A stretch of DNA of 32,000 bases. Source: Candidatus Saccharimonadota bacterium (GTDB lineage Bacteria; Patescibacteriota; Patescibacteriia; 2-12-FULL-60-25). The notes beneath the pieces were generated by a model, which saw only the letters and a list, made by a program, of their open reading frames with translations, searched no databases and had not been told where the DNA came from. Location of the stretch: positions 30,001 through 62,000 of the forward strand of contig OY970357.1 in the NCBI GenBank assembly GCA_963718585.1, read 5' to 3'. Position numbers and translations under genes: made by a program. Numbering within the stretch: position 1 is the first letter of the stretch; every line of letters begins with the position of its first letter. Positions 18,313-32,000 of this stretch are shown here, one piece after another.

Positions 18313-18389
18313 TGGTGCACCCCAGACGATTCGAACGTCTGACCTCTTCCTTCGGAGGGAAGCGCTCTATCCAGCTGAGCTAGGGGTGC
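18313..18389 (-). tRNA. tRNA-Arg (anticodon CCG), CCA encoded
   Basis: The 77-nt minus-sense sequence GCACCCCTAGCTCAGCTGGATAGAGCGCTTCCCTCCGAAGGAAGAGGTCAGACGTTCGAATCGTCTGGGGTGCACCA folds as a cloverleaf. Acceptor GCACCCC/GGGGTGC, anticodon loop CUCCGAA, T-loop TTCGAAT. Confidence 0.9.
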
Positions 18390-18585: not shown

Positions 18586-18661
18586 GCGTCGGTAGCTCAG
18601 CTGGTAGAGCAGGGGCCTCTTAAGCCCAAGGTCCTGGGTTCGATCCCCAGCCGACGCACCA
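18586..18661 (+). tRNA. tRNA-Lys (anticodon CUU), CCA encoded
   Basis: The 76-nt sequence GCGTCGGTAGCTCAGCTGGTAGAGCAGGGGCCTCTTAAGCCCAAGGTCCTGGGTTCGATCCCCAGCCGACGCACCA folds as a cloverleaf. Acceptor GCGTCGG/CCGACGC, anticodon loop CUCUUAA, T-arm CTGGG-TTCGATC-CCCAG. Confidence 0.9.
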
Positions 18662-18859: not shown

Positions 18860-18981
18860 GGCTGGGAGATCGAATGGGGAGGGTGATGGGAACCGGGAGG
18901 TTCCCATGACGGAAGTTTGAAACCGATGGGTTTCAAAAAAGCGAGCGAAGCGAGCGCGTGAGATCCCCAGCCGACGCACCA
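18860..18981 (+). repeat. structured module 2 ending in a perfect 19-nt copy of the tRNA-Lys 3' end
   Basis: The 5' arm is GGCTGGGAGATCGAAT (18860..18875). Hairpins lie at 18886..18907 (GGGA loop) and 18916..18937. The 3' end ATCCCCAGCCGACGCACCA is at 18963..18981. The order of elements is the same as in module 1. Confidence 0.8.
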
Positions 18982-18985
18982 ATGG

Positions 18986-19013
18986 AAAGACCTCGTCACC
19001 GCGGGGTCTTTTT
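18986..19013 (+). terminator. intrinsic terminator T3 after module 2
   Basis: AAGACCTCG-TCACCG-CGGGGTCTT (one G-U pair) followed by TTTG. It abuts the -35 element of the sigma-factor gene. Confidence 0.7.
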
Positions 19014-19017
19014 GTCA

Positions 19018-19045
19018 TTGACAACGTCTCTTCGTTCCATAAAGC
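19018..19045 (+). promoter_or_regulatory. candidate promoter for the sigma-factor gene
   Basis: Perfect -35 TTGACA (19018..19023). The -10 is weak (TAAAGC, 19040..19045, 16-nt spacer). ATG at 19057 has no SD. Confidence 0.4.
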
Positions 19046-19056
19046 TGAAAAATGCC

Positions 19057-20487
19057 ATGAGGAAGAAACGGAAGAGCGGCAGTGTTCCTTCACCATCTGT
19101 GACGCGTGCGTCGCAGCCTCCCGATCAGGAGGTGAGCTCGGCCCGGGATGAGCTCGCCCCGTACTTCGCCCTTCGTCGGATGTACCCCGTGCTGACCCAA
19201 GAGGAGTTCAACAGCGCGCTCAAGGTCTATCGGACGGCAAAGACCAAGGCAGCTCGCGAGCATGCTCGCGACAAGCTGACCTTCTCGAACATCGGGTTGA
19301 TCATCACCATCGCGTATCGGTCTCGGCATCATGGCGTGCGGTTGAGCCTGCTCGTCAATGAAGCGCTCGCCGTCATGGCGACGATCGTGCTCGACAAGTT
19401 CGATGAGACGCGTGGATTGAAGATCTCGACCTACGCCTCGTGGTGGATCCGCAGCGCGATCCACAACTCGATCCGCATGCACAAGACGGGAATGGCGGTC
19501 AGTATTCCGGAATACCAGATGATCAATCTGGGGCTCATCACCCGCGCGCGGAAGGAATTCAAGCGCGCGAATGGGAGAGTGCCGGATCAGGAGGAGCTCC
19601 TGAAGACCATCAATGGGTTCGATGCGAAAGTAGCGAAGGCGATAACGATGGAGAAGCTGAAGAACACGCTCCAATACGCCAGCATCCATGTCGATTCGTT
19701 CGACGCCCCCCTTCATCCGGATGCGGAGTTCACGCTTGGAGATATCCTTCCAGCGCCAGTACAGGATGGGCATTCGATCGAGGAGCGACTTTCCGAACCC
19801 GGTGGGATCGGGGAGCGGGTCCAAGAGGCCCTTGCAGAACTCGCGACCGTCAAGCCGCGTCATCATCTCATCGTTCGGTGCCGATACGGCTTGGACGGTC
19901 AATATCCAGAGACGCTCAAGACCGCCGGGAGCCGATTGAAGATCTCGCGTGAACGCGCGCGGCAGATCCAGAATGAGGCGCTTCGGTTCATGAGAAAGAT
20001 CACCGGGATCTCGGAAGAGCGGCTTGATGCGGTCCTGCTCGCGCTCGGGGAGATGGCCGTCTTCGAACCGGAAGTAGAGTCGCTCCCGAACGGCATGTCA
20101 TTGAACGGAGATGAGATGGAGGAGGTCTTCGCGATCTTCTCGGAGCATGCTGTGGACTGGCGCGGCCGTGGGACGTACCGCGTCCTCGCACCGTTTCAGA
20201 CGCTCTGCGCGCGTGTTCCTGTCCCGTCGGATGTCATCCGTCGGACCCTCCACAGTTTCAACACCTACAAGTGGATCGAAGCGGTTGAGGACCAGGATGC
20301 CGTGATCCTTCTGCGGACGGATCAGGTCCCGGCGCTGAAAAAGCCAGGTTCGGAGAAGAAGACCGCGAAGAAAAAGCGGTCTACGAAGACAGGAAAGAAG
20401 CGTCCGGTGAAGCGCCTGACGTTCGCGACACAGAAGAGCAATATCCGTCTCCGTCAGCGGAGACGGAAGAACGATCAGCCGACGTGA
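19057..20487 (+). CDS. sigma-70 family RNA polymerase sigma factor with ~160-aa C-terminal extension and basic tail
   Basis: Region 2 (DKFDETRGLKISTYASWWIRSAIHNSI), a region 3-like segment, and region 4 (IVRCRYGLDG...TLKTAGSRLKISRERARQIQNEALRFMRKI). Start set at ATG 19057; the GTG 18958 extension would read through the tRNA-end repeat and terminator T3. Confidence 0.85.
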   Translation: MRKKRKSGSVPSPSVTRASQPPDQEVSSARDELAPYFALRRMYPVLTQEEFNSALKVYRTAKTKAAREHARDKLTFSNIGLIITIAYRSRHHGVRLSLLVNEALAVMATIVLDKFDETRGLKISTYASWWIRSAIHNSIRMHKTGMAVSIPEYQMINLGLITRARKEFKRANGRVPDQEELLKTINGFDAKVAKAITMEKLKNTLQYASIHVDSFDAPLHPDAEFTLGDILPAPVQDGHSIEERLSEPGGIGERVQEALAELATVKPRHHLIVRCRYGLDGQYPETLKTAGSRLKISRERARQIQNEALRFMRKITGISEERLDAVLLALGEMAVFEPEVESLPNGMSLNGDEMEEVFAIFSEHAVDWRGRGTYRVLAPFQTLCARVPVPSDVIRRTLHSFNTYKWIEAVEDQDAVILLRTDQVPALKKPGSEKKTAKKKRSTKTGKKRPVKRLTFATQKSNIRLRQRRRKNDQPT

Positions 20488-21003: not shown

Positions 21004-22281
21004 ATGCGTCTCACAGGCCTCTTCACCAAGACTTCCAAGACCCCTCCGGCCGATGCCGAATCCGCGAACGCGCGATTCCTCGTTCAGGCCGGGTATGTCG
21101 ACCAGCTCATGGCCGGTGTCTACACGTATCTCCCGCTGGGTTTGCGCGTACTGAATCGGATCCAGAACATCGTCCGTGATGAGATGGATGCACTTGGCGC
21201 CCAGGAGGTCCTCATGCCTGCGCTCACCCCGGCCGAGCCGTGGAAGATCACCGGTCGTTGGACCGACCCGGGGCCTGAGGTCATGTTCCAGTTCAAAGGC
21301 GCTGGCGACCGCGATCTCGGCCTTGGCTGGACGCACGAGGAGATCGTGACCCCACTCCTGAAGAAATTCATCCAGTCGTACAAGGATCTGCCCGTGGCCG
21401 TCTATCAGGTGCAGGACAAATTCCGCAACGAGCTGCGTGCCAAGTCCGGGATCCTGCGCGGGCGCGAATTCAACATGAAGGATCTGTACAGCTTCCATGC
21501 GTCGGTCGAGGAGCTCGAAGCCTACTATGACAAGGCATTGGAGGCGTATCTCCGCGTGTTTCGACGGTGCGGGATCGATGCGATCCCGACGGAAGCGTCG
21601 GGCGGTGCGTTTTCCAAGGTCAGTCATGAATTTCAGATGCCGACCGAGAGCGGGGAGGATGTGATCTTCGTGAATCAGGCCGGTGATTATGCCTGGAATC
21701 GCGAGGTCGTGCCGGACATGAAGGATGGCGATGACGCACCGGATGGCTCCGGTCCGGTCCGTGAGATGAAAGCGATCGAGGTCGGGAACATCTTCAAATT
21801 GAAGACGCGCTTCACGGACGCATTCAATGTCGAATTCACGGACGAGGACGGATCGCGGAAAAAGGTGCAGATGGGATGCTACGGCATCGGTCCGTCGCGC
21901 GTCATGGGCGCGATCGTCGAGGCATCGCATGACGACCGTGGGATCATCTGGCCAAAGGTCGTGGCACCGTACGCCGTCCATATCGTCTCGATCAACGCGA
22001 AGAGTGACGAGATGCAGGACCGACTCATCGAGGCGGCCGAGGATCTGCATGACACCCTCGTGCAGGAAGGGATCGAGGTATTGTGGGATGACCGTGAGGT
22101 CAGTGCCGGACAGAAGCTTGCGGACGCGGACCTCATCGGATGTCCGCTCCGTCTGGTGATCTCGGAGAAAACGCTCGTAGAAGAGTCTGCGGAATGGAAA
22201 CTGCGTGCGACCGAAGAGATGAAGCTTGTGAATTTGCAGGACGCGGTCGAAGAGATCCGTTCGTTCGTGAAAGAAGTCTAA
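21004..22281 (+). CDS. proS: prolyl-tRNA synthetase, bacterial-type core without INS editing domain
   Basis: 425 aa with class II motifs (FRNELRAKSGILRGREFNMKDLYSFH; MGCYGIGPSRVMGAIVE) and an anticodon-binding domain. Only ~25 aa sit where E. coli-type ProRS carries the ~180-aa INS. Confidence 0.95.
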   Translation: MRLTGLFTKTSKTPPADAESANARFLVQAGYVDQLMAGVYTYLPLGLRVLNRIQNIVRDEMDALGAQEVLMPALTPAEPWKITGRWTDPGPEVMFQFKGAGDRDLGLGWTHEEIVTPLLKKFIQSYKDLPVAVYQVQDKFRNELRAKSGILRGREFNMKDLYSFHASVEELEAYYDKALEAYLRVFRRCGIDAIPTEASGGAFSKVSHEFQMPTESGEDVIFVNQAGDYAWNREVVPDMKDGDDAPDGSGPVREMKAIEVGNIFKLKTRFTDAFNVEFTDEDGSRKKVQMGCYGIGPSRVMGAIVEASHDDRGIIWPKVVAPYAVHIVSINAKSDEMQDRLIEAAEDLHDTLVQEGIEVLWDDREVSAGQKLADADLIGCPLRLVISEKTLVEESAEWKLRATEEMKLVNLQDAVEEIRSFVKEV

Positions 22282-22290
22282 GGTCGAGTG

Positions 22291-22328
22291 AAAAAGAAGA
22301 ACGCCCCGGGAAGCCCGGGGCGTTTTTG
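22291..22328. terminator. bidirectional intrinsic terminator between convergent proS and 22334..23419
   Basis: ACGCCCCGGG-AAG-CCCGGGGCGT is flanked by A-rich AAAAAGAAGA on the left and TTTT on the right, so it can serve both strands. Confidence 0.85.
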
Positions 22329-22333
22329 GGAGT

Positions 22334-23419
22334 TTAGTCCATCGAAGAGACGGAAAGGAGGCCGTACCCACATGAGCTGTCGTATTTTCTGCTCACGTGA
22401 ACACTCACCATCATGTGTCCATCTTTGGAATGGAGGTGAAGCGCGTACGGTGTCTGTGAACTCGTTTTCTCATTCGAACTCCAATCGGGAAGGCAGCCCT
22501 TGACCCTGTGAGCGATGAGACGAGCATCGGCGACAACGTCGCTGCACGTTTGGCCGTTTGGCGTATGGCACATGTACTCGGGAACGTCGTCCGGATCATC
22601 TTTACGTACGTATATCCGGCAGTGTTGGACTCCTGGGAGGGTGACCAGAGCTTCGTAGACATGCGAACTGTCATTACGGGTCGTTATACCGCGCAACGAC
22701 CGGAACTCCGGCGCATCGCGGATCACGCGTTTGAGCGCTGTGCAGAACGTCCCACTCGAACCAGATCCACTGGCAGTCGGTGGTGGAGGGGGCGGTGTCA
22801 CCTTGAATGGCTCCACGATCAGGCTGTTGATCCAGACGCTCAACAGTCGGCTGTACGGCACGATTTTCGGGAATATCGACATCGGATCGTTGATGTAGAC
22901 GTACGGGACCATGACGGAGACCGGACGTCCGAACATATCCTGGCGCCACTCTTGCCGGAATGCCATCCCGCGGATGACGATCGCGTGGGTGGAGCGGAAC
23001 CCGCTGACGATCTGCGCGATCACCGGGCGGTCGCTGTTCAAGATGTTGTACAGCGTCATGGGGTTCGTTGGCGGTGCGAGAGTCGTAATGACCCCGCCGA
23101 AGCGCAGGATCACGGCCCGGATCTCACCCATATCGTTCGCGGCTTTGACACAACGAGCGGGGTTGCCACAACAGTACCCCGGAGGCAGGCCATAGCCGAT
23201 CTCCATCATCTGGCACTGTTGGATGGACTGTCCGTTGTTCCGATAGCGGATGGCCATCTCGGACGCGGCGAGCCAGCACCATTCAGGTGTGTGTTGGAGA
23301 ACGATCGGGACGTTGAGATAGACGAGACCAGGTCCCGACTGTCCGCGGGACGTCGTCGCCGTGAGCCCGAAGACCCCGAGTGTGAGGATGATGATCAGGA
23401 GACGCAGTGCCTTGGCCAA
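22334..23419 (-). CDS. secreted papain-fold cysteine peptidase-like protein (C39/C70-like N-domain), poly-Pro linker, Cys-rich C-terminal domain
   Basis: TTG start at 23419, preceded by AGAGGAGG with a 5-nt spacer. Signal peptide AKALRLLIIILTLGVFGLTA. Putative nucleophile in Q..PEWCWLAASEMA, His in THAIVIRG, then YINDP. PPPPPP linker. Confidence 0.65.
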   Translation of the reverse strand: MAKALRLLIIILTLGVFGLTATTSRGQSGPGLVYLNVPIVLQHTPEWCWLAASEMAIRYRNNGQSIQQCQMMEIGYGLPPGYCCGNPARCVKAANDMGEIRAVILRFGGVITTLAPPTNPMTLYNILNSDRPVIAQIVSGFRSTHAIVIRGMAFRQEWRQDMFGRPVSVMVPYVYINDPMSIFPKIVPYSRLLSVWINSLIVEPFKVTPPPPPPTASGSGSSGTFCTALKRVIRDAPEFRSLRGITTRNDSSHVYEALVTLPGVQHCRIYVRKDDPDDVPEYMCHTPNGQTCSDVVADARLIAHRVKGCLPDWSSNEKTSSQTPYALHLHSKDGHMMVSVHVSRKYDSSCGYGLLSVSSMD

Positions 23420-23482
23420 GAGAACCTCCTCTATGTGAGTGCCAAAAGAGCCCGCCCATTACAGCGGAAGATGGCCGATCCG

Positions 23483-25168
23483 TCAATGATCAACGAGGCG
23501 TTTACGCATGTACGTTCCCGCCAACCGATATCCGAGCGATCGGTAATAGGCGCGGACGCCGATCCCGCTGATGACGGCGAGATCCCGGTATCCCTCGCGT
23601 ACCGCGATGGCTTCGGCCCGCCGCATGAGCTCGCGCCCGTACCCTTTGTGCTGCGCCGCGTCCGTACGCCCTTGTTTGAGCGCTAGCGCCGTTCCGTAGG
23701 TATGCAATTCGCGGACGATCGCTGCGTCACGTAGTTCGGGGAGGGCGTCTTCGATCTTCCGAGATTCTCGGTCAACCCGCGGATCTGACGCGTAGGGTTC
23801 AGATGTACGGACGTGCTCCGGGTCATTCGGCAGGCGAAGTCGCAAAAAGGCGAAGACCGCACGACGGTCCGGATCCTCCATGCTTAAAAAGACCTCGCGC
23901 CCACCGGCGTTCTCATACGTTTCTTCGAAGAGTTGCGGGGTGACGGTCGCAGGATCGATCTCGGTCACGTGTCCGACTTCGCGGCAACGGAGGCATTGGC
24001 AGGAAAGTCCGCGCCGTTTCATCTCGGATTCGATGGTCTCGCGAAGGTTCGTGATCTTATTTCCGTATGAGATCGCATGTTCAGGAAAGTCGCGGATGAG
24101 ACGAGAGATCCGGCAATATGGCGGCACAACGGTCTGCATGGCGATCAATAGCTCCTTCAGTGTCTCGCCCTCCAAAGGCGTGAATCGTCCCTCCTTGGAC
24201 CAGTCATGAAGCTCTGCGGTAGGCAGGACGACGCAGGGATAGAGCTTGATCATATCCGGACGGAATCGTGGATCCGTGAAGAGCGTGCGAAAGTCTTCCA
24301 GGTCTCGTTCCGGCGTGGACCCAGGTTGACCGGGCAGGATGTGAAAGTCCGTTTTGAGTCCGGCTTGTTTGAGGAGCGCGACCGCACGCACCGTTGCCTC
24401 GACCGTATGGCCCCGCTGGGTCAGCGCGAGGACCTCGTCCTGCAAGGTCTGTACCCCGAGTTCCACGCGCGTGCACCCGAGTTCGCGCAGACGCTGGATC
24501 TCCACGGCATTCACCCAATCTGGACGTGTCTCGATCGTGAGTCCGATGATCCGATACTGGGCAGACTCGTTGGCACGTTGAGTCGTCGCAAGGTTCGCGA
24601 AGCGACGTTTGTGGCCGGATGCTCCCAAGTGATTGGCCGCATCGAAACAGCGTTTGATGAACCAGCGGCGATAGTCCCAGCGGTAGGAGGACCATGTCCC
24701 GCCTTTGATGATGAGCTCGATCTTTTCCGCGCGATGCCCATTTCGTTCCAGTGTCCGCACGCGCTGGAACACCTGATCGTATGGATCGAATCGTAAGGAC
24801 AGGGCGCGCGCGGCAGCTGGTTCGCTCGCAAGGTAGCTTTTGGGCATCCGCGCTTCGGTCGGGCAGTAGACGCACTTGCCCGGGCAGGGATATGGCTTCG
24901 TCAGGACCGTGATCGGCGCGACGCCGGAATCCGTGCGGACATCCTTCACACGGAGGAGCCGTTCGAGAGCGGTCGTTTGCGGGATCCGTCCATGCGTGAC
25001 GGCCTTGCGGTACGTGGTCCAAAGCTCCTGTGCATCCGGGAAGCGGTATGGCGTGCCCTTCAACCGACGCCGCATGACGGTCCATAAACGCTGCCGATCT
25101 CGGAGATCGGTCGTCAGAGCGTCGGAGAGTATGCGCTCCACGAGCGCGGTCGGTGGACGTTCAGGCAT
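23483..25168 (-). CDS. elp3: Elp3-type radical SAM / GNAT tRNA U34 side-chain (cm5U) synthase
   Basis: PYPCPGKCVYCP radical-SAM cluster motif, an Elp3 central region, and a C-terminal GNAT domain (HKGYGRELMRRAEAIAVREGY...). Start set at ATG 25168, because the longer ORF (to 25450) overlaps the divergent methyltransferase gene. Confidence 0.9.
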   Translation of the reverse strand: MPERPPTALVERILSDALTTDLRDRQRLWTVMRRRLKGTPYRFPDAQELWTTYRKAVTHGRIPQTTALERLLRVKDVRTDSGVAPITVLTKPYPCPGKCVYCPTEARMPKSYLASEPAAARALSLRFDPYDQVFQRVRTLERNGHRAEKIELIIKGGTWSSYRWDYRRWFIKRCFDAANHLGASGHKRRFANLATTQRANESAQYRIIGLTIETRPDWVNAVEIQRLRELGCTRVELGVQTLQDEVLALTQRGHTVEATVRAVALLKQAGLKTDFHILPGQPGSTPERDLEDFRTLFTDPRFRPDMIKLYPCVVLPTAELHDWSKEGRFTPLEGETLKELLIAMQTVVPPYCRISRLIRDFPEHAISYGNKITNLRETIESEMKRRGLSCQCLRCREVGHVTEIDPATVTPQLFEETYENAGGREVFLSMEDPDRRAVFAFLRLRLPNDPEHVRTSEPYASDPRVDRESRKIEDALPELRDAAIVRELHTYGTALALKQGRTDAAQHKGYGRELMRRAEAIAVREGYRDLAVISGIGVRAYYRSLGYRLAGTYMRKRLVDH

Positions 25169-25183
25169 TTCGTTGGGTAGAGT
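25154..25183 (+). promoter_or_regulatory. candidate promoter for the methyltransferase gene (leaderless geometry)
   Basis: TGGACG (25154..25159), 18-nt spacer, TAGAGT (25178..25183). The ATG at 25193 follows 9 nt after the -10 element, with no SD. The -35 element lies inside the first elp3 codons. Confidence 0.4.
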
Positions 25184-25192
25184 GAACACAGC

Positions 25193-25942
25193 ATGACGCA
25201 GAGTGTCGAAGCCATCAAGCGGTCCGTCGCCGCCTTCTACCAGACGTATGGGAAGGATTTTTCTGCGACCCGGCGCGGCACCTGGGACGTGATGCGTCTG
25301 ATCCTCGAGGTCTTGCGTCCCGGCGATACGCTTGTGGACGTCGGAGCGGGGAACGCCCGGCTCGCCCGTGAGGTCCCGAGCAGTGTGCGGTACATCGGGA
25401 TCGAACCATCGGAGACCATGCGGGCTGAAGCGCAACGGTTCGTGGCACAACGGAAGGAAGGGGATCTGCGCGCCGGCGGATTTCCGCGTTTACCCGTGGG
25501 GGACGCGGAAGCGGATGCGGTCGCTTGCATCGCCGTGCTCCACCATCTCACGCCGGCAGAGCGATTCCCGGCCATTGCAGAGCTCCATCGGATCCTTCGT
25601 CCGGGAGGCGTCCTCATCCTGACCGTCTGGAATCTGCGTTGTCGGCGGTTTGCTCGCTTGTCGACGCTTGCCGCTGCGTGGTTCCAATGGTCGCTTGTCG
25701 CCGGCGGAGGTCCGGGTGATCTTTGGATGCCGTGGCAGGGTGGATCCGATGAGGCAAAGCGATACGTCCACTGCTTCACCCCGGTGGAACTCCGTTCGTA
25801 TTTCGACGCGGAACACTGGCACATGGAGCGGTGCGAGCCCTGGGCGCGCGGACAAACCGCATCCGTTTGGAACGGGCCGAATCTTGTCGTCGTCGCGCGT
25901 AAAAAAATCCCGCCGAAGCGGGAGGAGGAGCGGCCATACTAG
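25193..25942 (+). CDS. class I SAM-dependent methyltransferase, Trm9/ALKBH8-MTase-like
   Basis: Motif I LVDVGAGNARLA, plus blocks that line up with yeast Trm9 / human ALKBH8 as I recall them: FYQTYGKDFSATRRGTW, ACIAVLHHLTPAERF..L.RILRPGGVLILTVW, DLWMPW, RYVHCFTPVEL, NLVVVARKK. Confidence 0.75.
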   Translation: MTQSVEAIKRSVAAFYQTYGKDFSATRRGTWDVMRLILEVLRPGDTLVDVGAGNARLAREVPSSVRYIGIEPSETMRAEAQRFVAQRKEGDLRAGGFPRLPVGDAEADAVACIAVLHHLTPAERFPAIAELHRILRPGGVLILTVWNLRCRRFARLSTLAAAWFQWSLVAGGGPGDLWMPWQGGSDEAKRYVHCFTPVELRSYFDAEHWHMERCEPWARGQTASVWNGPNLVVVARKKIPPKREEERPY

Positions 25943-26424
25943 GCGGCTTGAGGGGGGAGCGAAGGGCCACCAGGAAGAGCGCGTCGTGGATACCATGCGA
26001 TCTCTTTGACCGATGCTTTCGTCATGTAGGTCGCATCAAAGAGTGTCGAGAGGAGCCAACAGACGGCGTCGCGTCCATCTGTATTGATCAAAGGTAGGAT
26101 GTCGTATGGGGGCGTGCAGGTGGGGTCGGCAGCAAGGCACCGTTCCCGGATCTCGTGAAGTAAGATCGAGATATGACACGGGTTGTCGGGGCGGGGTTGA
26201 TCTTTGAAGAGCAGACTGAACCCGTCTGACGTATGCATCACCTCGATCCCGCACTGGAGCGCCGTGGAGAGCTGGTCCGCGAAAACGTCTACGACGGACG
26301 GGTCGATCCGTGCCTTTGGTCGACTCCAGCTGACATGATCGTTCATCTCGATCCGCGTACCTTTTGGCGAGCGGAATGAGCACGATCCAGATTTGAATAC
26401 GAACCGGTCATTCGCGTAGAGCAT
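25939..26424 (-). CDS. hypothetical protein
   Basis: GGAGG with a 5-nt spacer before ATG 26424 (the ORF track starts at GTG 26430). 161 aa with several Cys. Its stop overlaps the methyltransferase stop in the tetranucleotide CTAG. No family recognised. Confidence 0.65.
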   Translation of the reverse strand: MLYANDRFVFKSGSCSFRSPKGTRIEMNDHVSWSRPKARIDPSVVDVFADQLSTALQCGIEVMHTSDGFSLLFKDQPRPDNPCHISILLHEIRERCLAADPTCTPPYDILPLINTDGRDAVCWLLSTLFDATYMTKASVKEIAWYPRRALPGGPSLPPQAA

Positions 26425-26453
26425 GTTCACCTCCGTAAAAAGAGCAGGCGTTC

Positions 26454-26482
26454 ACTGTAAGGAGGGGAGCGATGCGGGTCAA
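26454..26482 (-). promoter_or_regulatory. sigma-70-type promoter for 25939..26424
   Basis: Minus-sense TTGACC (26482..26477), 17-nt spacer, TACAGT (26459..26454). Confidence 0.55.
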
Positions 26483-26487
26483 GGGTC

Positions 26488-26515
26488 AAAAAAACCGCCC
26501 GCATGGAGCGGACGG
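26488..26515 (-). terminator. intrinsic terminator after hup
   Basis: Minus-sense CCGTCCGC-TCCAT-GCGGGCGG followed by TTTTTTT. Confidence 0.85.
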
Positions 26516-26523
26516 TCTTGATC

Positions 26524-26865
26524 TTACATCTGTGGTGCCATGGGGGGCGCGGCTGGCGGGGGTGTTGAAGGCGGTTCGACGGGACGCTGACGCTTGAGTG
26601 CGTCTTTGAGACCCTTACCAGCCTTGAATTTGGGAACGGTCACGGACGGGATCTGGATCTTCTCTGACGTATTACGTGGATTGACCCCCGTCCGACCTGC
26701 ACGCGTCTTGGCCATGAATGAGCCGAATCCAGCGATCGTGACCTCGCCGCCGTGCGTCAACGTTTCCGTGACGGTGTCGACAAAGCATTCGACCATGTCT
26801 TCGGCCTGTTTCTTGGTGAGGCCGACCTTCTCCGCAATGTGCGTGATAAGCTCCGCTTTATTCAT
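26524..26865 (-). CDS. hup: HU/IHF-family DNA-binding protein with Pro-rich C-terminal extension
   Basis: MNKAELITHIAEKVGLTKKQAEDMVE...GFGSF...RAGRTGVNPRT-like arm...VPKFKAGKGLKDAL, then a PVEPPSTPPPAAPPMAPQM tail. The alternative start ATG 26874 (MRCMNK) lies closer to an AGGAG. Confidence 0.9.
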   Translation of the reverse strand: MNKAELITHIAEKVGLTKKQAEDMVECFVDTVTETLTHGGEVTIAGFGSFMAKTRAGRTGVNPRNTSEKIQIPSVTVPKFKAGKGLKDALKRQRPVEPPSTPPPAAPPMAPQM

Positions 26866-27040
26866 ACAACGCATTTGACTCCTGAAAATCGCGATCTGCT
26901 GGGGTTTTGCATCGTCGCGCACTCACCGTACGTTCTCCGTACGCCTCGCACGTTCCTCGCTCCAGCCCGCAGCATCTCATCGATTTTTAAGGGTCGAGGA
27001 TTAAGAGTTACGGTTTGATCTCAGAATACCCGGATTTGGC

Positions 27041-27844
27041 TTAGCCATCAACAATTTTGCGGATCTGGTCAAGTCCCACCGCCCGGCCGGTGTCAATATC
27101 TGCCTCGATGAGCGCCGCATTCACCTCGATCTTTCCGGTCCTCGGTTGGTCGTAGGATGTGCTTCCAGGGCTTAAAAATGACTTAACTGCGCTATTTTTT
27201 TCGAATCCGATGACTGAATCGTACGCCCCGTTCCGGCCAACATCTGTCACATAGGCGGTCCCGCCAGGCAGGATCTTGCCATCGGCGGTGGGGACGTGGG
27301 TGTGGGTACCTAGGACCGCGGTGACGCGGCCGTCGGCAAAATGTCCGAAGGCCTCTTTTTCGCTCGTGGCCTCGGCGTGGAAGTCCACGAGGACGAGATC
27401 TACGTCCGGATGTCGGGTCAGGATCGTGTCGAGCGTCTCGAATGGGCTCGCGACCTCATCTTTCATGAAGAGCTTTCCCAGGAGATTCGTCACGAGGATA
27501 TTCGTTCCCTCCTTTTCGATCACCATCGCTCCGTGTCCAGGGCGATGCGCGATGATATTCGCGGGACGGACGAGTCGATCGCGCCATGTCGGGTCGTCAA
27601 AGCAGGCGAGACCCATCTGGTTCTCCCAGACGTGATTGCCAGAGGTGTACGCGTCGATCCCCGCGGCATCCATCTCCTTCAAGGTCTTGGGTGTGATCCC
27701 GCGTCCGTGGGACAGGTTCTCGACATTCGCGATGATGAGATCGGGATGCAGCTCGGCGCGGAGCGCGGGCAGGGCGGTCGTCACTCCGCGACGTCCGATC
27801 GCGCCGATGATGTCACCGAAGAAGAGGATCTTGAAGCTGCGCAT
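27041..27844 (-). CDS. ymdB: YmdB-like metallophosphoesterase (2',3'-cyclic-nucleotide phosphodiesterase family)
   Basis: ILFFGDIIG, ANVENLSHGRG, SGNHVWEN and DFHAEATSEK blocks. Sits directly downstream of rny (1-nt gap), as in Bacillus. Confidence 0.9.
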   Translation of the reverse strand: MRSFKILFFGDIIGAIGRRGVTTALPALRAELHPDLIIANVENLSHGRGITPKTLKEMDAAGIDAYTSGNHVWENQMGLACFDDPTWRDRLVRPANIIAHRPGHGAMVIEKEGTNILVTNLLGKLFMKDEVASPFETLDTILTRHPDVDLVLVDFHAEATSEKEAFGHFADGRVTAVLGTHTHVPTADGKILPGGTAYVTDVGRNGAYDSVIGFEKNSAVKSFLSPGSTSYDQPRTGKIEVNAALIEADIDTGRAVGLDQIRKIVDG

Positions 27845-27845
27845 C

Positions 27846-29381
27846 CTAGCGGGCGTATTCGATGATGCGGGTCTCGCGGATGAGGGTCACGCGGACCTCA
27901 CCCGGATACTTGAGCTCGGCTTCCACTTTGTGTGCGATGTCCTTGGCAAGCTGGGTCGCGGCAAAGTCGTCGATCTGTTGCGGGTTCACGAACACGCGGA
28001 CCTCGCGTCCGGCTTGGATGGCGTAGACCTTTTCAACGCCCGGGAAGGACGACGCGGCCAGTTCGAGATCTTCCAAGCGCTTCACGTACAGCTCGAACGA
28101 GTCCTTGCGCGCGCCGGGTCGGGCACCGGAGATGGCGTCTGCGGCCTTCACGATCACGGCTTCGAGTGTCTTTGGTTTATCCTCGTGATGGCCGATCGAC
28201 TGGTAGCACAGCTCTTCGGGGAATCCGAATTTCTTCATGATCTGATAGCCGAGTTCGGGGTGGCCGCCCTGCATGTCGTGGTCCACGCCTTTGCCGATGT
28301 CGTGGAAGAGGCCGCCGACCTTGCAGACTTTCACGTCCGCATGGAGTTCCTCCGCCATCATGGCGGAGAGATTCGCGACTTCCATGGAGTGCATGAGCGC
28401 ATTTTGACCGAAGGATGTGCGGTATTTGAGACGGCCCAGGATCTGGATGAGCTTTGGATCGATCCCGGTCATGGGGATCCCGAGTTGATACAACGCATCT
28501 TCGCCCGCTTTTTTGATGTCGATCGCGAGCTCCTTTTTCGCTTCGTCGATCGCCGTCTCGATGCGTCCTGGATGGATACGGCCGTCTTTGAGCAGTTTTG
28601 CGAGTGCGTGCTTTGCCACCTGGCGTCGAATGGGGGAGAACCCGGAGATCGTGAGGATCCCGGGCTGATCATCCACGATGAGTTCACACCCGGTGAGCCA
28701 TTCGAGCGCCTTGATGTTGCGGCCTTCCTTCCCGATGATCCGTCCTTTCATGTCGTCGCTCGGAAGCTCGATGTAAGACGTGGTCGTCTCGGAGACCGTA
28801 CTCGAAGCGAGTCGCTGGATGGCGACGGCGATGATGTTCTTCGCCTTGCGTTCGATCTCGTCGGAATCTTGCTGGTCGAGTTTCCGCATGCGGCTCATGA
28901 GCGCGTCTTGGTTGTCGCGTTCCACGACCTGCATCAGGCGCTCCTGTGCCTGCTCCTGTGTGAGTTGGGCGATGGTCTCCAAACGCTTCGACTCCTCCGC
29001 CTCGAGTTCAGCGAGCCGCTTTTCGCCTTCGGTAAGTTTTGTGGAGCGCTCCTCCAAGGATTTCCGCGTTTCATCCATCTCCAAGATTTTCTTTCCGAAT
29101 TCGGCTTCGCGCTCGGAAAGCTGTTGTCGATCCTTCTTGGATTCTTCGGTCAACCGTTTTTCCTCTATGCGGGCATCCTCGAGGATCTTGATGGCTTTGT
29201 CTTTTGCCTTGACGAGGACATCCTGCTGCTTGGACTCAGCATCTGCCAAGATGTGCTTGGCTTTTGCCTCGGCCTCGTCGACCTGTTGTTGGATTTTCTT
29301 TCCTTTGTCTGAAACGATGAGCTTTGCGATCACGGCGCCGATCGCCGCGCCGATGATGAGCCCGATAAGGGCGTACAACAT
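27846..29381 (-). CDS. rny: ribonuclease Y
   Basis: 511 aa. N-terminal TM helix (MLYALIGLIIGAAIGAVIAKLIV), a coiled-coil region, a KH domain (GRIIGKEGRNIKALE) and an HD domain (GGLFHDIGK...). Confidence 0.95.
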   Translation of the reverse strand: MLYALIGLIIGAAIGAVIAKLIVSDKGKKIQQQVDEAEAKAKHILADAESKQQDVLVKAKDKAIKILEDARIEEKRLTEESKKDRQQLSEREAEFGKKILEMDETRKSLEERSTKLTEGEKRLAELEAEESKRLETIAQLTQEQAQERLMQVVERDNQDALMSRMRKLDQQDSDEIERKAKNIIAVAIQRLASSTVSETTTSYIELPSDDMKGRIIGKEGRNIKALEWLTGCELIVDDQPGILTISGFSPIRRQVAKHALAKLLKDGRIHPGRIETAIDEAKKELAIDIKKAGEDALYQLGIPMTGIDPKLIQILGRLKYRTSFGQNALMHSMEVANLSAMMAEELHADVKVCKVGGLFHDIGKGVDHDMQGGHPELGYQIMKKFGFPEELCYQSIGHHEDKPKTLEAVIVKAADAISGARPGARKDSFELYVKRLEDLELAASSFPGVEKVYAIQAGREVRVFVNPQQIDDFAATQLAKDIAHKVEAELKYPGEVRVTLIRETRIIEYAR

Positions 29382-29680
29382 ATGATCAAACGCCCGGTTT
29401 TCACGAAAAAATGTCCGAGGCCGGTCTTCGCTGTTCCGTTGTTGTGTCAGTCTCGCGATGACCCACGTGGGATCACGGTGACAGAGTCATGGTGGAAGGC
29501 CGACCGCTGGTTCATCCGTGCCAACCGGAGCGGGTTAGGTATTGGGTCGGTAAAGCCACGATAGCAAAGGTCGCCTCCGGCGTCTAGGTATGAAAAACTC
29601 TCTTCTGGGCGAGTGGGGCCTCTTTTGGAGACGGATCCCGTGGGCGGACTATGTGCTGAGAAGGTTGATCCCCGTGATCC

Positions 29681-30469
29681 CTACGGTGGAAGCTCGCCGT
29701 TTTTGGCCAGCTCCTCAAGACGCGTCGCGTCATCGACTCGATAGTCGCCGACGCGGGTACGGCGAAGCTGGGTGAGATACGCGCCACAGCCGAGCGCACG
29801 TCCGATGTCATCGGCCAGGGTGCGGATGTACGTTCCGGAGGAGCAGGTGACCTGGAATTTCAGGAACGGCCATTCATAATCCACGAGTCGTAGGTCATGG
29901 ATGGTCACGGTCTTCACCGGACGCATTTCCTCCGTCGCCTTCCCTTTCCGTGCGAGTTCGTACAATTTCTTACCGCCGACCTTCTTCGCAGAATGGAGCG
30001 GCGCTTTTTGATCGTGTGATCCTTGGAACCGCTTCAAGATGTCGATGACGTCGTCGATCGTCGGGCGTTCATATCCTTTATTCTCCGTGATCTCGCCCTC
30101 GGGGTCGAACGTCGTGCTCGTCGCACCGAGCCGTGCGGTCGCCTCATACGTCTTATCGAGTCCGACGAGTGCGGTCAGCTTTTTGGTCGCTGGGCCGACA
30201 CCGACGATCAAGAGCCCGGTCGCGAACGGATCGAGCGTTCCAGCGTGACCGATCCGGCGGATCTTCAAGATGCCGCGCAGTTTTGCGACGACATCGTGGC
30301 TCGTCCATCCTGTGGGTTTATCGATCAAGAGAAGACCCCCAGGATCGCGACCCGCTTGGTCTTCGCTACGCTCCACGCTCACCGGTCCGTCGAGTACGTC
30401 TCGCGCGTCGCTCGCTCCAGACCGGCGCGTCTCATCGATCCTGGAGGTCTTCGGGACTTTTTGTGACAT
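29681..30469 (-). CDS. truB: tRNA pseudouridine(55) synthase TruB
   Basis: LLIDKPTGWTSHDVV...RIGHAGTLDPFATGLLIVGVG with the catalytic Asp motif. There is a ~45-aa N-terminal extension with no alternative Met. Confidence 0.9.
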   Translation of the reverse strand: MSQKVPKTSRIDETRRSGASDARDVLDGPVSVERSEDQAGRDPGGLLLIDKPTGWTSHDVVAKLRGILKIRRIGHAGTLDPFATGLLIVGVGPATKKLTALVGLDKTYEATARLGATSTTFDPEGEITENKGYERPTIDDVIDILKRFQGSHDQKAPLHSAKKVGGKKLYELARKGKATEEMRPVKTVTIHDLRLVDYEWPFLKFQVTCSSGTYIRTLADDIGRALGCGAYLTQLRRTRVGDYRVDDATRLEELAKNGELPP

Positions 30470-30483
30470 GCCCGCATCCTAGC

Positions 30484-30520
30484 ATAAAAAGAAACACCCG
30501 CCGTCGTGCGACAGCGGGTG
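30484..30520 (-). terminator. intrinsic terminator after 30527..31018, immediately upstream of truB
   Basis: Minus-sense CACCCGCTGTC-GCAC-GACGGCGGGTG (one G-U pair) followed by TTTCTTTTTAT. Confidence 0.8.
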
Positions 30521-30526
30521 AGGAGA

Positions 30527-31018
30527 CTAGGAGGGCATGGGCTTCAGCGGGCGCAAAAGCCACGCTTCGAAGAGGGCGACCATGTCATGATATTCGCCGC
30601 ACGCGATCTCGTGACGCCATCCCCCGGGGACGGACGTGTCTCGCGCCCAGCCGTTCGACGCAAGGATGCGGTGACCGCCGTCTTTCCCTTTTTCGACCTC
30701 TCGCCAGGAGAAACTGACCGTGACGGTCTTCCCATCCCGTTGGACATCCGCAAAGAGCCAGGTCTCCTTGGACATGATGTCCCACCAGCGAAAGGTCCCG
30801 ATGGTCGCTTCGTTGATCCCGGAAAGCTCCATGAGCTTGCCCAGGATCTTCCGCTGCTCCTCAGCGCTCGGGAGTCGTTTGAGGAATTCCATCGTAAAGA
30901 AGATGCGCTCTGGATCCGTACTCGGTGGATGAAGGCTTTTAGCCGCTTCGCGCGTCTTTTCTTCGCCCGAGAGCTCGACAGTGAATGCCGAAAGGACGTC
31001 TTCAGCCGGAAAGAACAT
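30527..31018 (-). CDS. hypothetical protein
   Basis: GGAGG with a 6-nt spacer before ATG 31018. 163 aa. No family recognised. Confidence 0.7.
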   Translation of the reverse strand: MFFPAEDVLSAFTVELSGEEKTREAAKSLHPPSTDPERIFFTMEFLKRLPSAEEQRKILGKLMELSGINEATIGTFRWWDIMSKETWLFADVQRDGKTVTVSFSWREVEKGKDGGHRILASNGWARDTSVPGGWRHEIACGEYHDMVALFEAWLLRPLKPMPS

Positions 31019-31088
31019 GTTTCACCTCCGCGTTTACCCTAATGGATACCGCGCGGTTTGGCCAGACAGCCGTCCAAGGCTAAAAAGA

Positions 31089-31117
31089 TTGACTTTTTCG
31101 CCAAAATCTCCTACCCT
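31089..31117 (+). promoter_or_regulatory. candidate promoter for infB (leaderless geometry)
   Basis: TTGACT (31089..31094), 17-nt spacer, TACCCT (31112..31117). The ATG at 31126 follows 8 nt after the -10 element, with no SD. Confidence 0.5.
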
Positions 31118-31125
31118 TGGCCCAC

Positions 31126-32000
31126 ATGAACGTCTCTGATTTGGCCCGCAAATTGCGGACAACGCCCCACGAGCTCCTGCAGAAACTTCCGGTGCTCGGT
31201 TTTGATGTCGGTCGCAAGGCGATCAAGATCGATAACACGGTCGCGGATCGGATCATCAGGAAATGGTACGAGAACGAGCGGCGCGAACGTATCCGGAACA
31301 CCTTGCTTGCGTCTGCCAAAAAGCCGGGGGAGGAGGCGACGAAGGAGCTCAAGGCCATAAAGCTTCCGTCGGTCATCGTCGTGCGTGAGTTGGCGGGACG
31401 TTTGAATCTCCCGGTCACGCGCGTCATTCAGGAATTGATGCGCGCCGGCATCCTCGCGTCGCAAAATGAACGGTTGGATTTTGAGACCGCGGCCATCATC
31501 TCGGAAGAGCTTGGGTTCAAGGCGGAACCGGCCGAGGCGAAGCCGGATGACGCTAATGAGCAGGTCCAGGCGGTCGATCGTGTGAAGGAGGTCTTCGCTT
31601 CGGAGAAGGTAGAGCATTTGATCGCCCGTCCCCCTGTCATCGTGGTCATGGGACACGTGGACCATGGGAAGACCAAGCTTCTCGATGCGATCCGTGAGAC
31701 GAATGTCGTAGACAAGGAAGCGGGCGGCATTACACAGCATATCGGTGCGTACCAAGTGGAACGGAAGGATCGGAAGATCACGTTCATCGATACGCCGGGT
31801 CATGAGGCGTTCACGGTCATGCGTTCGCGTGGTGCGAAGGTCGCGGATGTCGCGATCCTCGTGATCGCGGCGGATGACGGGGTCCAGCCGCAGACCAAGG
31901 AAGCGCTTGAGATCATCCAGGCGGCAAAAATCCCGTTCGTCGTCGCATTGAACAAGATGGATAAGCCTGACGTTGATCCGGATCGCGTCCTTGCGCAGCT
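31126..32000 (+). CDS. infB: translation initiation factor IF-2 (5' part; runs off the window)
   Basis: This ORF is not in the track because it has no stop within the window. My translation from ATG 31126 is [10 protein letters not shown]...[23 protein letters not shown]...[10 protein letters not shown]...VALNKMDK, i.e. G1, G3 and G4 of the IF-2 GTPase domain. Confidence 0.95.

Follow-up and report, generated by a model that had tools for sequence, protein, structure and literature searches.

Two genes placed head to head in a 32,000-nucleotide stretch of a Candidatus Saccharimonadota genome (hereafter the window) were analyzed as candidates for a two-step pathway of wobble-uridine modification. 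The minus-strand gene encodes Elp3, and the plus-strand gene encodes a class I S-adenosylmethionine (SAM)-dependent methyltransferase resembling Trm9; all feature coordinates are collected in Table 1. The window spans bases 30001-62000 of a genome assembled as one contig of 1,084,458 bp and rated 100% complete with 0.16% contamination, and the nearest protein relatives of its genes were found in Candidatus Uhrbacteria and "Patescibacteria group" assemblies. An earlier note on this DNA had described the two genes as divergent and 24 bp apart, and both their positions and their spacing were confirmed exactly. The minus-strand open reading frame (ORF; 23483..25450) opens at a TTG codon and contains an internal ATG at 25168 (MPERPP...), which was taken as the start of the 561-residue protein and fits homologous loci, which match Elp3 from residue 1-4. 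No sigma-70-like site was found in the 24-bp spacer, and at this length each gene's promoter must be inside the other gene, a head-to-head layout that suggests shared regulation.

C5 modification of the wobble uridine (U34) of transfer RNA (tRNA) is near-universal, and its enzymes are split by domain in textbook accounts: bacteria use MnmE and MnmG to make 5-(carboxy)methylaminomethyluridine ((c)mnm5U), and eukaryotes and some archaea use Elp3 or the Elongator complex followed by Trm9 to make 5-methoxycarbonylmethyluridine (mcm5U). The window genes were identified against this background by family profiles, active-site residues, genomic linkage and the remaining pathway genes of the same genome.

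By sequence, the minus-strand product is a full member of the Elp3 family, and the earlier note's description of it (a radical-SAM cysteine motif followed by a C-terminal GNAT domain) held. It scored 532.5 bits against NCBIfam TIGR01211 (cut-off 350), carried the Pfam domains Radical_SAM (residues 95-287), Radical_SAM_C (304-385) and Acetyltransf_1 (504-547) in that order, and matched the Methanocaldococcus infernus and Dehalococcoides mccartyi Elp3 structures in the PDB at E values of 1e-118 to 1e-120. The cluster motif aligned with CPhGKCIFC of M. infernus and CPGKCIYC of D. mccartyi with all three cysteines kept, at a spacing identical to that of the D. mccartyi enzyme (DmcElp3). The linker motif aligned with CRCIRCREVGH and CRCIRCREYGH of the solved structures, its three cysteines being conserved across bacterial and archaeal Elp3 (PMC6367351), and the GNAT motif aligned with QHMGYGRMLM and QHRGLGRKLL with the Q/RxxGxG pattern kept. 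The iron-sulfur, zinc and acetyl-CoA sites are thus all intact. Relative to DmcElp3, the window protein has approximately 75 extra N-terminal residues and an insert of approximately 20-25 residues in the loop that precedes the GNAT core; the N-terminal region of Elp3 is important for tRNA binding (PMC6367351). In two relatives (L011:3694-5811 and L012:3694-5811), Elp3 is 705 amino acids long and has DUF559 / MTES_1575 endonuclease-type matches beside its radical-SAM domains, which suggests in-frame insertion of a nuclease-like element; the window Elp3 has no such insert, and the methyltransferases of these relatives are 45% identical to that of the window.

The plus-strand product returned only generic Methyltransf_11/25/12/23 matches from Pfam and NCBIfam, none above its curated cut-off. 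No Trm9 model was among these matches, so those libraries could not decide Trm9 identity and other tests were used. A UbiE/MenG-type quinone methyltransferase was rejected as a candidate, as the best UbiE-type NCBIfam model reached 28.5 bits against a cut-off of 216, TIGR01934 reached 23.5 against 158, and UbiE-type models overall scored 24-29 bits against cut-offs of 158-327.

The Trm9-like identity given in the earlier note was supported by each of four comparisons. A PDB search with a profile of 19 close homologues placed Yarrowia lipolytica Trm9 (YlTrm9; 5cm2_Z) first (E 2.4e-12, 50.1 bits), in an alignment spanning profile positions 25-205 and covering the TR, HH, VW, D..PW and RY.H motifs. 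The AlphaFold2 model of the methyltransferase (predicted local distance difference test score 92.5) had 5cm2_Z as its best Foldseek match (E 3.6e-13, template-modelling score 0.79 on target). When the bacterial family was aligned by hhalign with 18 fungal Trm9 (sequences so named by their sources and gathered with the 5CM2 fragment), the probability was 99.8 with E 6e-28 over 207 columns, nearly all of both profiles. Searched in the reverse direction, a hidden Markov model (HMM) of fungal Trm9 run over the six-frame ORFs of the complete genome recovered the window gene as its best match, at 51.1 bits versus 32.9 for the next. Identity to Trm9 was only approximately 20-23%, and Trm9 came first in the PDB only with the family profile: in a single-sequence search a Thermus hypothetical protein (2gs9) was first and Trm9 tenth. 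A word-based homologue search with a contig scan returned close relatives followed by generic methyltransferases and was uninformative on distant kinship. A search of 1.84 billion representatives showed the family to be large (219 representatives at E <= 1e-30); the best 150 matches were all unnamed family members of approximately 210-270 amino acids, giving no rank for Trm9. In public records, members of the family carry the name "class I SAM-dependent methyltransferase" or "hypothetical protein".

Active-site residues were compared with the mutational analysis of Saccharomyces cerevisiae Trm9 (ScTrm9) by Letoquart et al., in which alanine mutants of R29, D72, H116, W145, W168, R241, Y243 and N271 were inactive, alanine mutants of H24, K31, H115, Q149 and D270 kept activity, and the essential residues were placed around the SAM methyl group and docked 5-carboxymethyluridine (cm5U; PMC4678810). 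Residues were counted after 143 family representatives and 18 fungal Trm9 had been aligned with MAFFT, and the mapping was also taken from hhalign. Seven of the eight essential residues are kept in the window protein: R27 (R in 143/143 representatives and in 18/18 fungal Trm9), E71 at the position of ScTrm9 D72 (D/E in 143/143), H118 (H in 139/143), W146 (W in 143/143), W181 (W in 129/143), R190 (R in 140/143) and N230 (N in 134/143), the last also paired by hhalign with YlTrm9 N222. Y16, equivalent to ScTrm9 Y18 (near the carboxylate; PMC4678810), is Y in 135/143. All essential positions except that of Y243 are therefore at least 90% conserved in the 143 representatives, and the bacterial family varies at the dispensable Trm9 positions H115, Q149 and D270. 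The conserved blocks of Trm9/ALKBH8 that the earlier note had listed were all present, from FSATR through NLVVVARK, and their residues were invariant or nearly so in the 19 close homologues. The conserved essential residues are outside the generic SAM-binding motifs, and their conservation is considered the most telling sequence evidence for a substrate like that of Trm9.

Conservation of the gene pair was measured in 301 Patescibacteria genomes drawn evenly from the phylum, with genes within 3 kb of each other counted as a pair. Elp3 was above cut-off in 118 genomes, and the methyltransferase profile matched 100 at E <= 1e-12. The 83 best matches (E <= 1.3e-15) were all in Elp3-carrying genomes, and 72 of them were within 3 kb of Elp3 and divergent from it; adding two weaker matches gave 74 pairs in 73 genomes and 34 family-level groups, every pair divergent and most with gaps of <250 bp. 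Matches weaker than approximately 1e-15 were mostly in Elp3-free genomes and were generic methyltransferases. Adjacency of the two genes is far beyond chance, and its recurrence in 34 family-level groups rules out local synteny alone, related genomes not being independent of one another. Confinement of the family to Elp3-carrying genomes is as expected if its substrate is the Elp3 product. In public assemblies the pair was present at every locus encoding close homologues, where the whole block from ProRS through HU, YmdB and RNase Y was syntenic.

The pair was also found outside the Patescibacteria. The DmcElp3 sequence was rebuilt from the PDB alignment, and a 98%-identical database entry was used to reach the D. 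mccartyi CP019867 locus, in which a 224-amino-acid Methyltransf_11 gene is 44 bp upstream of Elp3 and divergent from it. With the fungal Trm9 HMM its product reached 71 bits; it has HH, VWN, VPW, RYY and RN motifs, and the pair recurs in another Dehalococcoidia genome. The D. mccartyi pair lies in a gene context other than that of the window, with hydrogenase genes to one side and QueH, ArsP and a GNAT gene to the other, which means that the two genes travel or are retained together.

The complete genome was searched for the remaining enzymes of U34 modification, with the outcome that MnmE and MnmG are absent and MnmA is present. No MnmG was found, the MnmE model matched only the GTPase domains of other proteins (<=100 bits against a cut-off of 253), and MnmA is encoded (387 bits). 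Among the 301 Patescibacteria genomes, MnmG was found in 11, none of which has a true Elp3; this mutual exclusivity fits a shared role at U34. The earlier note had seen no Trm112 gene beside the pair, and no stand-alone Trm112 was found in the complete genome either. Only one PF03966 match came near cut-off (21.6 bits), and it corresponds to an N-terminal zinc ribbon in a 331-amino-acid methyltransferase fusion encoded among glycosyltransferase genes. The convergent ORF next to the pair (25939..26430), which the earlier note had thought not Trm112-like, had no Pfam or NCBIfam match and is absent from the otherwise syntenic locus L011, and it was ruled out as a Trm112 substitute.

ARAGORN predicted 47 tRNAs in the genome, including Lys(UUU), Glu(UUC), Gln(UUG), Arg(UCU), Gly(UCC) and Leu(UAA), with separate C34 isoacceptors for Lys, Glu and Gln. 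Every tRNA species that Elongator serves in yeast has its gene here. A tRNA-Ile with anticodon UAU was also predicted (G000:C1:108054-108128), only two tRNA(CAU) genes were found, and the TilS model TIGR02432 had no match in the complete genome. Instead of a lysidine tRNA, this tRNA-Ile(UAU) is probably the reader of AUA, which makes the modification of its U34 a matter of interest.

The two window genes are judged likely to be a module for wobble-uridine C5 modification that makes mcm5U34 or its 2-thio form, mcm5(s2)U34. The earlier note had proposed a two-step (m)cm5U34 pathway in a bacterium, an interpretation that family membership, conserved residues and linkage support, with the product being predicted. 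Of the outcomes that the earlier note had named as refuting its proposal (a better score for UbiE-type families, a pair not conserved in relatives, or MnmE/MnmG present with degenerate Elp3 residues), none was observed. In the first step, Elp3 would act alone, as in archaea, and would use its radical-SAM [4Fe-4S] cluster and GNAT-bound acetyl-CoA to carboxymethylate C5 of U34, giving cm5U; this step is proposed because of the strong family membership and intact motifs of Elp3. In the second step, the Trm9-like methyltransferase would use SAM to esterify the cm5U carboxylate, giving mcm5U; this step is proposed because of the full-length similarity to the Trm9 profile, the conserved substrate-binding residues and the tight gene linkage. 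The methyltransferase probably works without a Trm112 partner, given that the genome has no stand-alone Trm112 gene. MnmA would add the s2 group on tRNA-Lys(UUU), tRNA-Glu(UUC) and tRNA-Gln(UUG) to give mcm5s2U, so that the pathway would join C5 chemistry of archaeal/eukaryotic type to thiolation of bacterial type. The Elp3-methyltransferase module would thereby substitute for MnmE and MnmG. The wider proposal, that approximately 40% of the sampled Patescibacteria, together with Dehalococcoides, have swapped MnmE/MnmG for a Trm112-independent Elp3-Trm9 module and decode with mcm5U or mcm5s2U thiolated via MnmA, is put forward with confidence only a little above even.

Several observations weigh against this pathway. 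Eukaryotic Trm9 is inactive without Trm112, of which there is no stand-alone copy here. The position of the essential Tyr243 is occupied by V192 in the window protein and varies across the family (Y 71, V 27 and C 14 of 143). In the PDB profile search the runner-up, an uncharacterised Anabaena methyltransferase (3ege_A), scored 48.7 bits against 50.1 for Trm9, in a match to the N-terminal half only. The second Foldseek match had an E value of 9e-13 and dozens of class I methyltransferases were within tenfold, so the fold alone is non-discriminating. In a maximum-likelihood tree of 25 family members, two Dehalococcoidia proteins, 12 fungal Trm9, the 16 nearest non-family methyltransferases and four other methyltransferases of the same genome, the bacterial family, Dehalococcoides and fungal Trm9 grouped at only 81/95, unstarred, with Trm9 placed within the family group and two long-branch non-family intruders there as well. 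Monophyly of the family with Trm9 was not rejected by the approximately unbiased test (p 0.32); the tree accommodates kinship with Trm9 but does not decide it. Some Patescibacteria families have Elp3 without the methyltransferase (in group f27, 14/14 genomes have Elp3 and 0/14 the methyltransferase), so the methyl-transfer step is not obligatory; these lineages may stop at cm5U or another derivative. Finally, bacterial Elp3 is limited to Dehalococcoides according to a 2020 review, which describes direct evidence for xcm5U34 there as lacking (PMC7663514).

Two of these points carry side observations. In the complete f27 genome G174 (G174:C1:128300-135700, L097), Elp3 is between NDK and a gene for a large surface protein with Ig- and CarboxypepD_reg repeats. 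The 331-amino-acid protein mentioned above (G000:C1:661031-662047, minus strand; locus L007:616-1611) combines a Trm112-like zinc ribbon (CPxC...C.C) with Methyltransf_11, was the second-best match of the Trm9 HMM (33 bits) and was placed by the tree beside fungal Trm9 (88/76) on a long branch. Its sequence lacks the FS.TR, D..PW and RY.H motifs, and for this reason its placement is viewed as a long-branch effect.

Among the alternatives, the one that best survives is that the methyltransferase acts elsewhere, be it on a different atom of the Elp3 product, at some other position of tRNA or ribosomal RNA or on a small molecule, and that its link to Elp3 reflects only co-regulation or a physical, non-catalytic partnership. 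Such an enzyme would fit the merely generic Methyltransf_11-type matches, the narrow PDB and Foldseek margins of Trm9 over unrelated methyltransferases, the valine at the Tyr243 position, the missing Trm112 and the indecisive tree, but it is considered unlikely, as the cm5U-binding residues outside the SAM core (R29, H116, W145, W168, R241 and N271 in ScTrm9 numbering) are kept across 143 divergent representatives, the Trm9 alignment is full-length and the family, at E <= 1.3e-15, occurs only with Elp3. A second alternative, that the window Elp3 is a protein or other acetyltransferase and not a tRNA enzyme, with a neighbouring methyltransferase unrelated to tRNA, is highly improbable: it draws only on the historical histone acetyltransferase annotation, still the molecule name in PDB entries, whereas tRNA, and neither histone nor tubulin peptides, specifically triggers acetyl-CoA hydrolysis by bacterial, archaeal and yeast Elp3 (PMC6367351), in vitro formation of cm5U by archaeal Elp3 is cited in PMC5372719 and PMC7663514, and MnmG and Elp3 exclude each other in the sampled genomes. 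The weakest alternative, that adjacency is inherited synteny without functional meaning in a block of ProRS, Elp3, methyltransferase, HU, YmdB and RNase Y, fits the sharing of the entire block by close relatives but is given almost no credence, being already contradicted by the cross-phylum data (the pair intact and divergent in 34 family-level groups, a different context in D. mccartyi of the Chloroflexota, and no occurrence of the methyltransferase family without Elp3).

The Elp3-methyltransferase pathway proposed here was compared with known systems. The same two chemistries are carried out by Elongator with Trm9-Trm112 in yeast (5CM2 being the Yarrowia structure) and with ALKBH8-TRMT112 in animals; the window methyltransferase aligns full-length with Trm9 and keeps seven of the eight essential residues, D72 as Glu. 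In contrast to those systems, the window organism has no Elp1, Elp2, Elp4-6 or stand-alone Trm112, its thiolation is predicted to depend on MnmA and not on Ncs2/Ncs6-Urm1, Tyr243 is replaced by Val, the two genes are physically paired, and identity to Trm9 is low, as given above. The MnmE/MnmG (+MnmC) pathway to (c)mnm5(s2)U34 acts at the same position of the same tRNAs and likewise combines with MnmA, but its enzymes and chemistry are unrelated (a GTPase and a flavin adenine dinucleotide enzyme, using glycine and methylene-tetrahydrofolate). CmoM (SmtA) of E. coli is a class I methyltransferase that esterifies uridine 5-oxyacetic acid (cmo5U34) to its methyl ester (mcmo5U34), a carboxylate on a wobble-uridine side chain. 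It thus resembles the window enzyme as a bacterial class I methyltransferase esterifying a wobble-uridine carboxylate, as predicted here, but belongs to a separate pathway (cmo5U via CmoA/CmoB); no CmoM model was among the NCBIfam matches of the window methyltransferase at E <= 0.01, and CmoA/CmoB models reached only 16-18 bits.

DmcElp3 (5L7J, 5L7L, 6IA6) shares with the window protein a bacterial origin, a CPGKC.YC motif and a divergent Trm9-like neighbour, and differs in its short N-terminus (459 amino acids in total), the window Elp3 being longer N-terminally, like the archaeal enzymes. The archaeal systems share a stand-alone Elp3, Elp3-Trm9 clustering and the presence of Trm9 in only some Elp3-bearing lineages: HvoTrm9 of Haloferax volcanii has been characterised and binds Trm112, an Elp3-Trm9 cluster is reported in Sulfolobus solfataricus (PMC5372719, PMC6144793), and among archaea only a few orders have Trm9 (PMC5372719). 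They differ in that the window organism is a bacterium and that the Haloferax enzyme binds Trm112, for which there is no separate gene here. This likeness to archaeal Trm9 is drawn from descriptions, the sequence comparison of the window protein having been made with fungal Trm9.

DmcElp3 was termed "a rare example of bacterial Elp3s" in 2019 (PMC6367351), and a 2026 paper reports "numerous bacteria" with Elp3, and Elp3 only. Literature searches covering Patescibacteria, the candidate phyla radiation and bacterial mcm5U returned no description of a bacterial Elp3-Trm9 pair or a bacterial Trm9. The 2019, 2020 and 2026 papers do not mention the methyltransferase neighbour of DmcElp3, a result that does not extend to the 2016 structure paper (PMC5018218).

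The surroundings of the pair (window 21004..31803) are translation and RNA-metabolism genes, with IF-2 coming next after the window set in the close relative L009. Between ProRS and Elp3, a minus-strand gene (22334..23419) that is not in the syntenic loci L009 and L013 encodes a 361-amino-acid protein with an N-terminal hydrophobic segment, a proline-rich linker and a papain-like Peptidase_C70/C39_2 domain (26.7 and 25.3 bits). A plus-strand sigma-70-family gene (18958..20487) was unusually long as listed (509 amino acids from GTG); only regions 2 and 4 were detected in its product, followed by a Lys/Arg-rich C-terminal extension of approximately 150 amino acids.

Table 1. Features of the elp3-methyltransferase locus and its surroundings, in window positions.
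Feature	Position	Strand	Details
tRNA-Arg(CCG)	18313-18389		Just upstream of the sigma-70-family gene
tRNA-Lys(CUU)	18586-18661		Just upstream of the sigma-70-family gene
ProRS	21004-22281		
elp3	23483..25168	-	Predicted radical-SAM/GNAT tRNA U34 carboxymethyl (cm5U) synthase, 561 amino acids; TIGR01211, Pfam and PDB matches
Elp3 GNAT motif QHKGYGRELM	23624..23653	-	Residues 506-515; acetyl-CoA-binding
Elp3 linker Cys motif CQCLRCREVGH	23969..24001	-	Residues 390-400; zinc site of prokaryotic Elp3
Elp3 cluster motif CPGKCVYC	24863..24886	-	Residues 95-102; [4Fe-4S] cluster; alignment to solved Elp3
Spacer between divergent start codons	25169..25192		24 bp; sequence
Trm9-like class I SAM-dependent methyltransferase	25193..25942	+	249 amino acids, ATG start; predicted cm5U34 to mcm5U34 carboxyl methyltransferase
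FSATR	25259..25273	+	Residues 23-27; R27 = ScTrm9 R29 (proposed to position substrate carboxylate); hhalign
IAVLHH	25529..25546	+	Residues 113-118; H117/H118 = ScTrm9 H115/H116 (H116 essential)
LRPGG			Residues 135-139
TVWN	25622..25633	+	Residues 144-147; W146 = ScTrm9 W145 (proposed to stack on U34)
GDLWMPW	25715..25735	+	Residues 175-181; W181 = ScTrm9 W168
RYVHCF	25760..25777	+	Residues 190-195; R190 = ScTrm9 R241, V192 at ScTrm9 Y243 position
NLVVVARK	25880..25903	+	Residues 230-237; N230 = ScTrm9 N271 (proposed to read O2/N3 of U34)
HU	26524-26922		
YmdB	27041-27844		
RNase Y	27846-29381		
TruB	29681-30469		

Eukaryotes and archaea provide precedents for the chemistry and for both enzyme families, but no description was found of the bacterial setting, of the lack of Trm112 or of the pairing with MnmA. 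As judged from its genes, this bacterium probably uses in decoding a "eukaryote-type" tRNA modification that was found reported for no bacterium. The predicted pathway is complete and genetically linked, widespread in Patescibacteria, present in D. mccartyi and mutually exclusive with MnmG. If this is true, mcm5U and mcm5s2U, hitherto known only from eukaryotes and a few archaea, would also be bacterial modifications, Trm9 could act without Trm112, and the Elp3-Trm9 pair would be ancient or would have been swapped between archaea and bacteria as a unit. The question is directly testable, since D. mccartyi is cultivable and its Elp3 has already been produced recombinantly. For mechanistic studies the family would supply a Trm9 that is naturally independent of Trm112, a generically annotated methyltransferase family gains a specific functional proposal, and the pathway would bear on decoding accuracy in reduced-genome bacteria.

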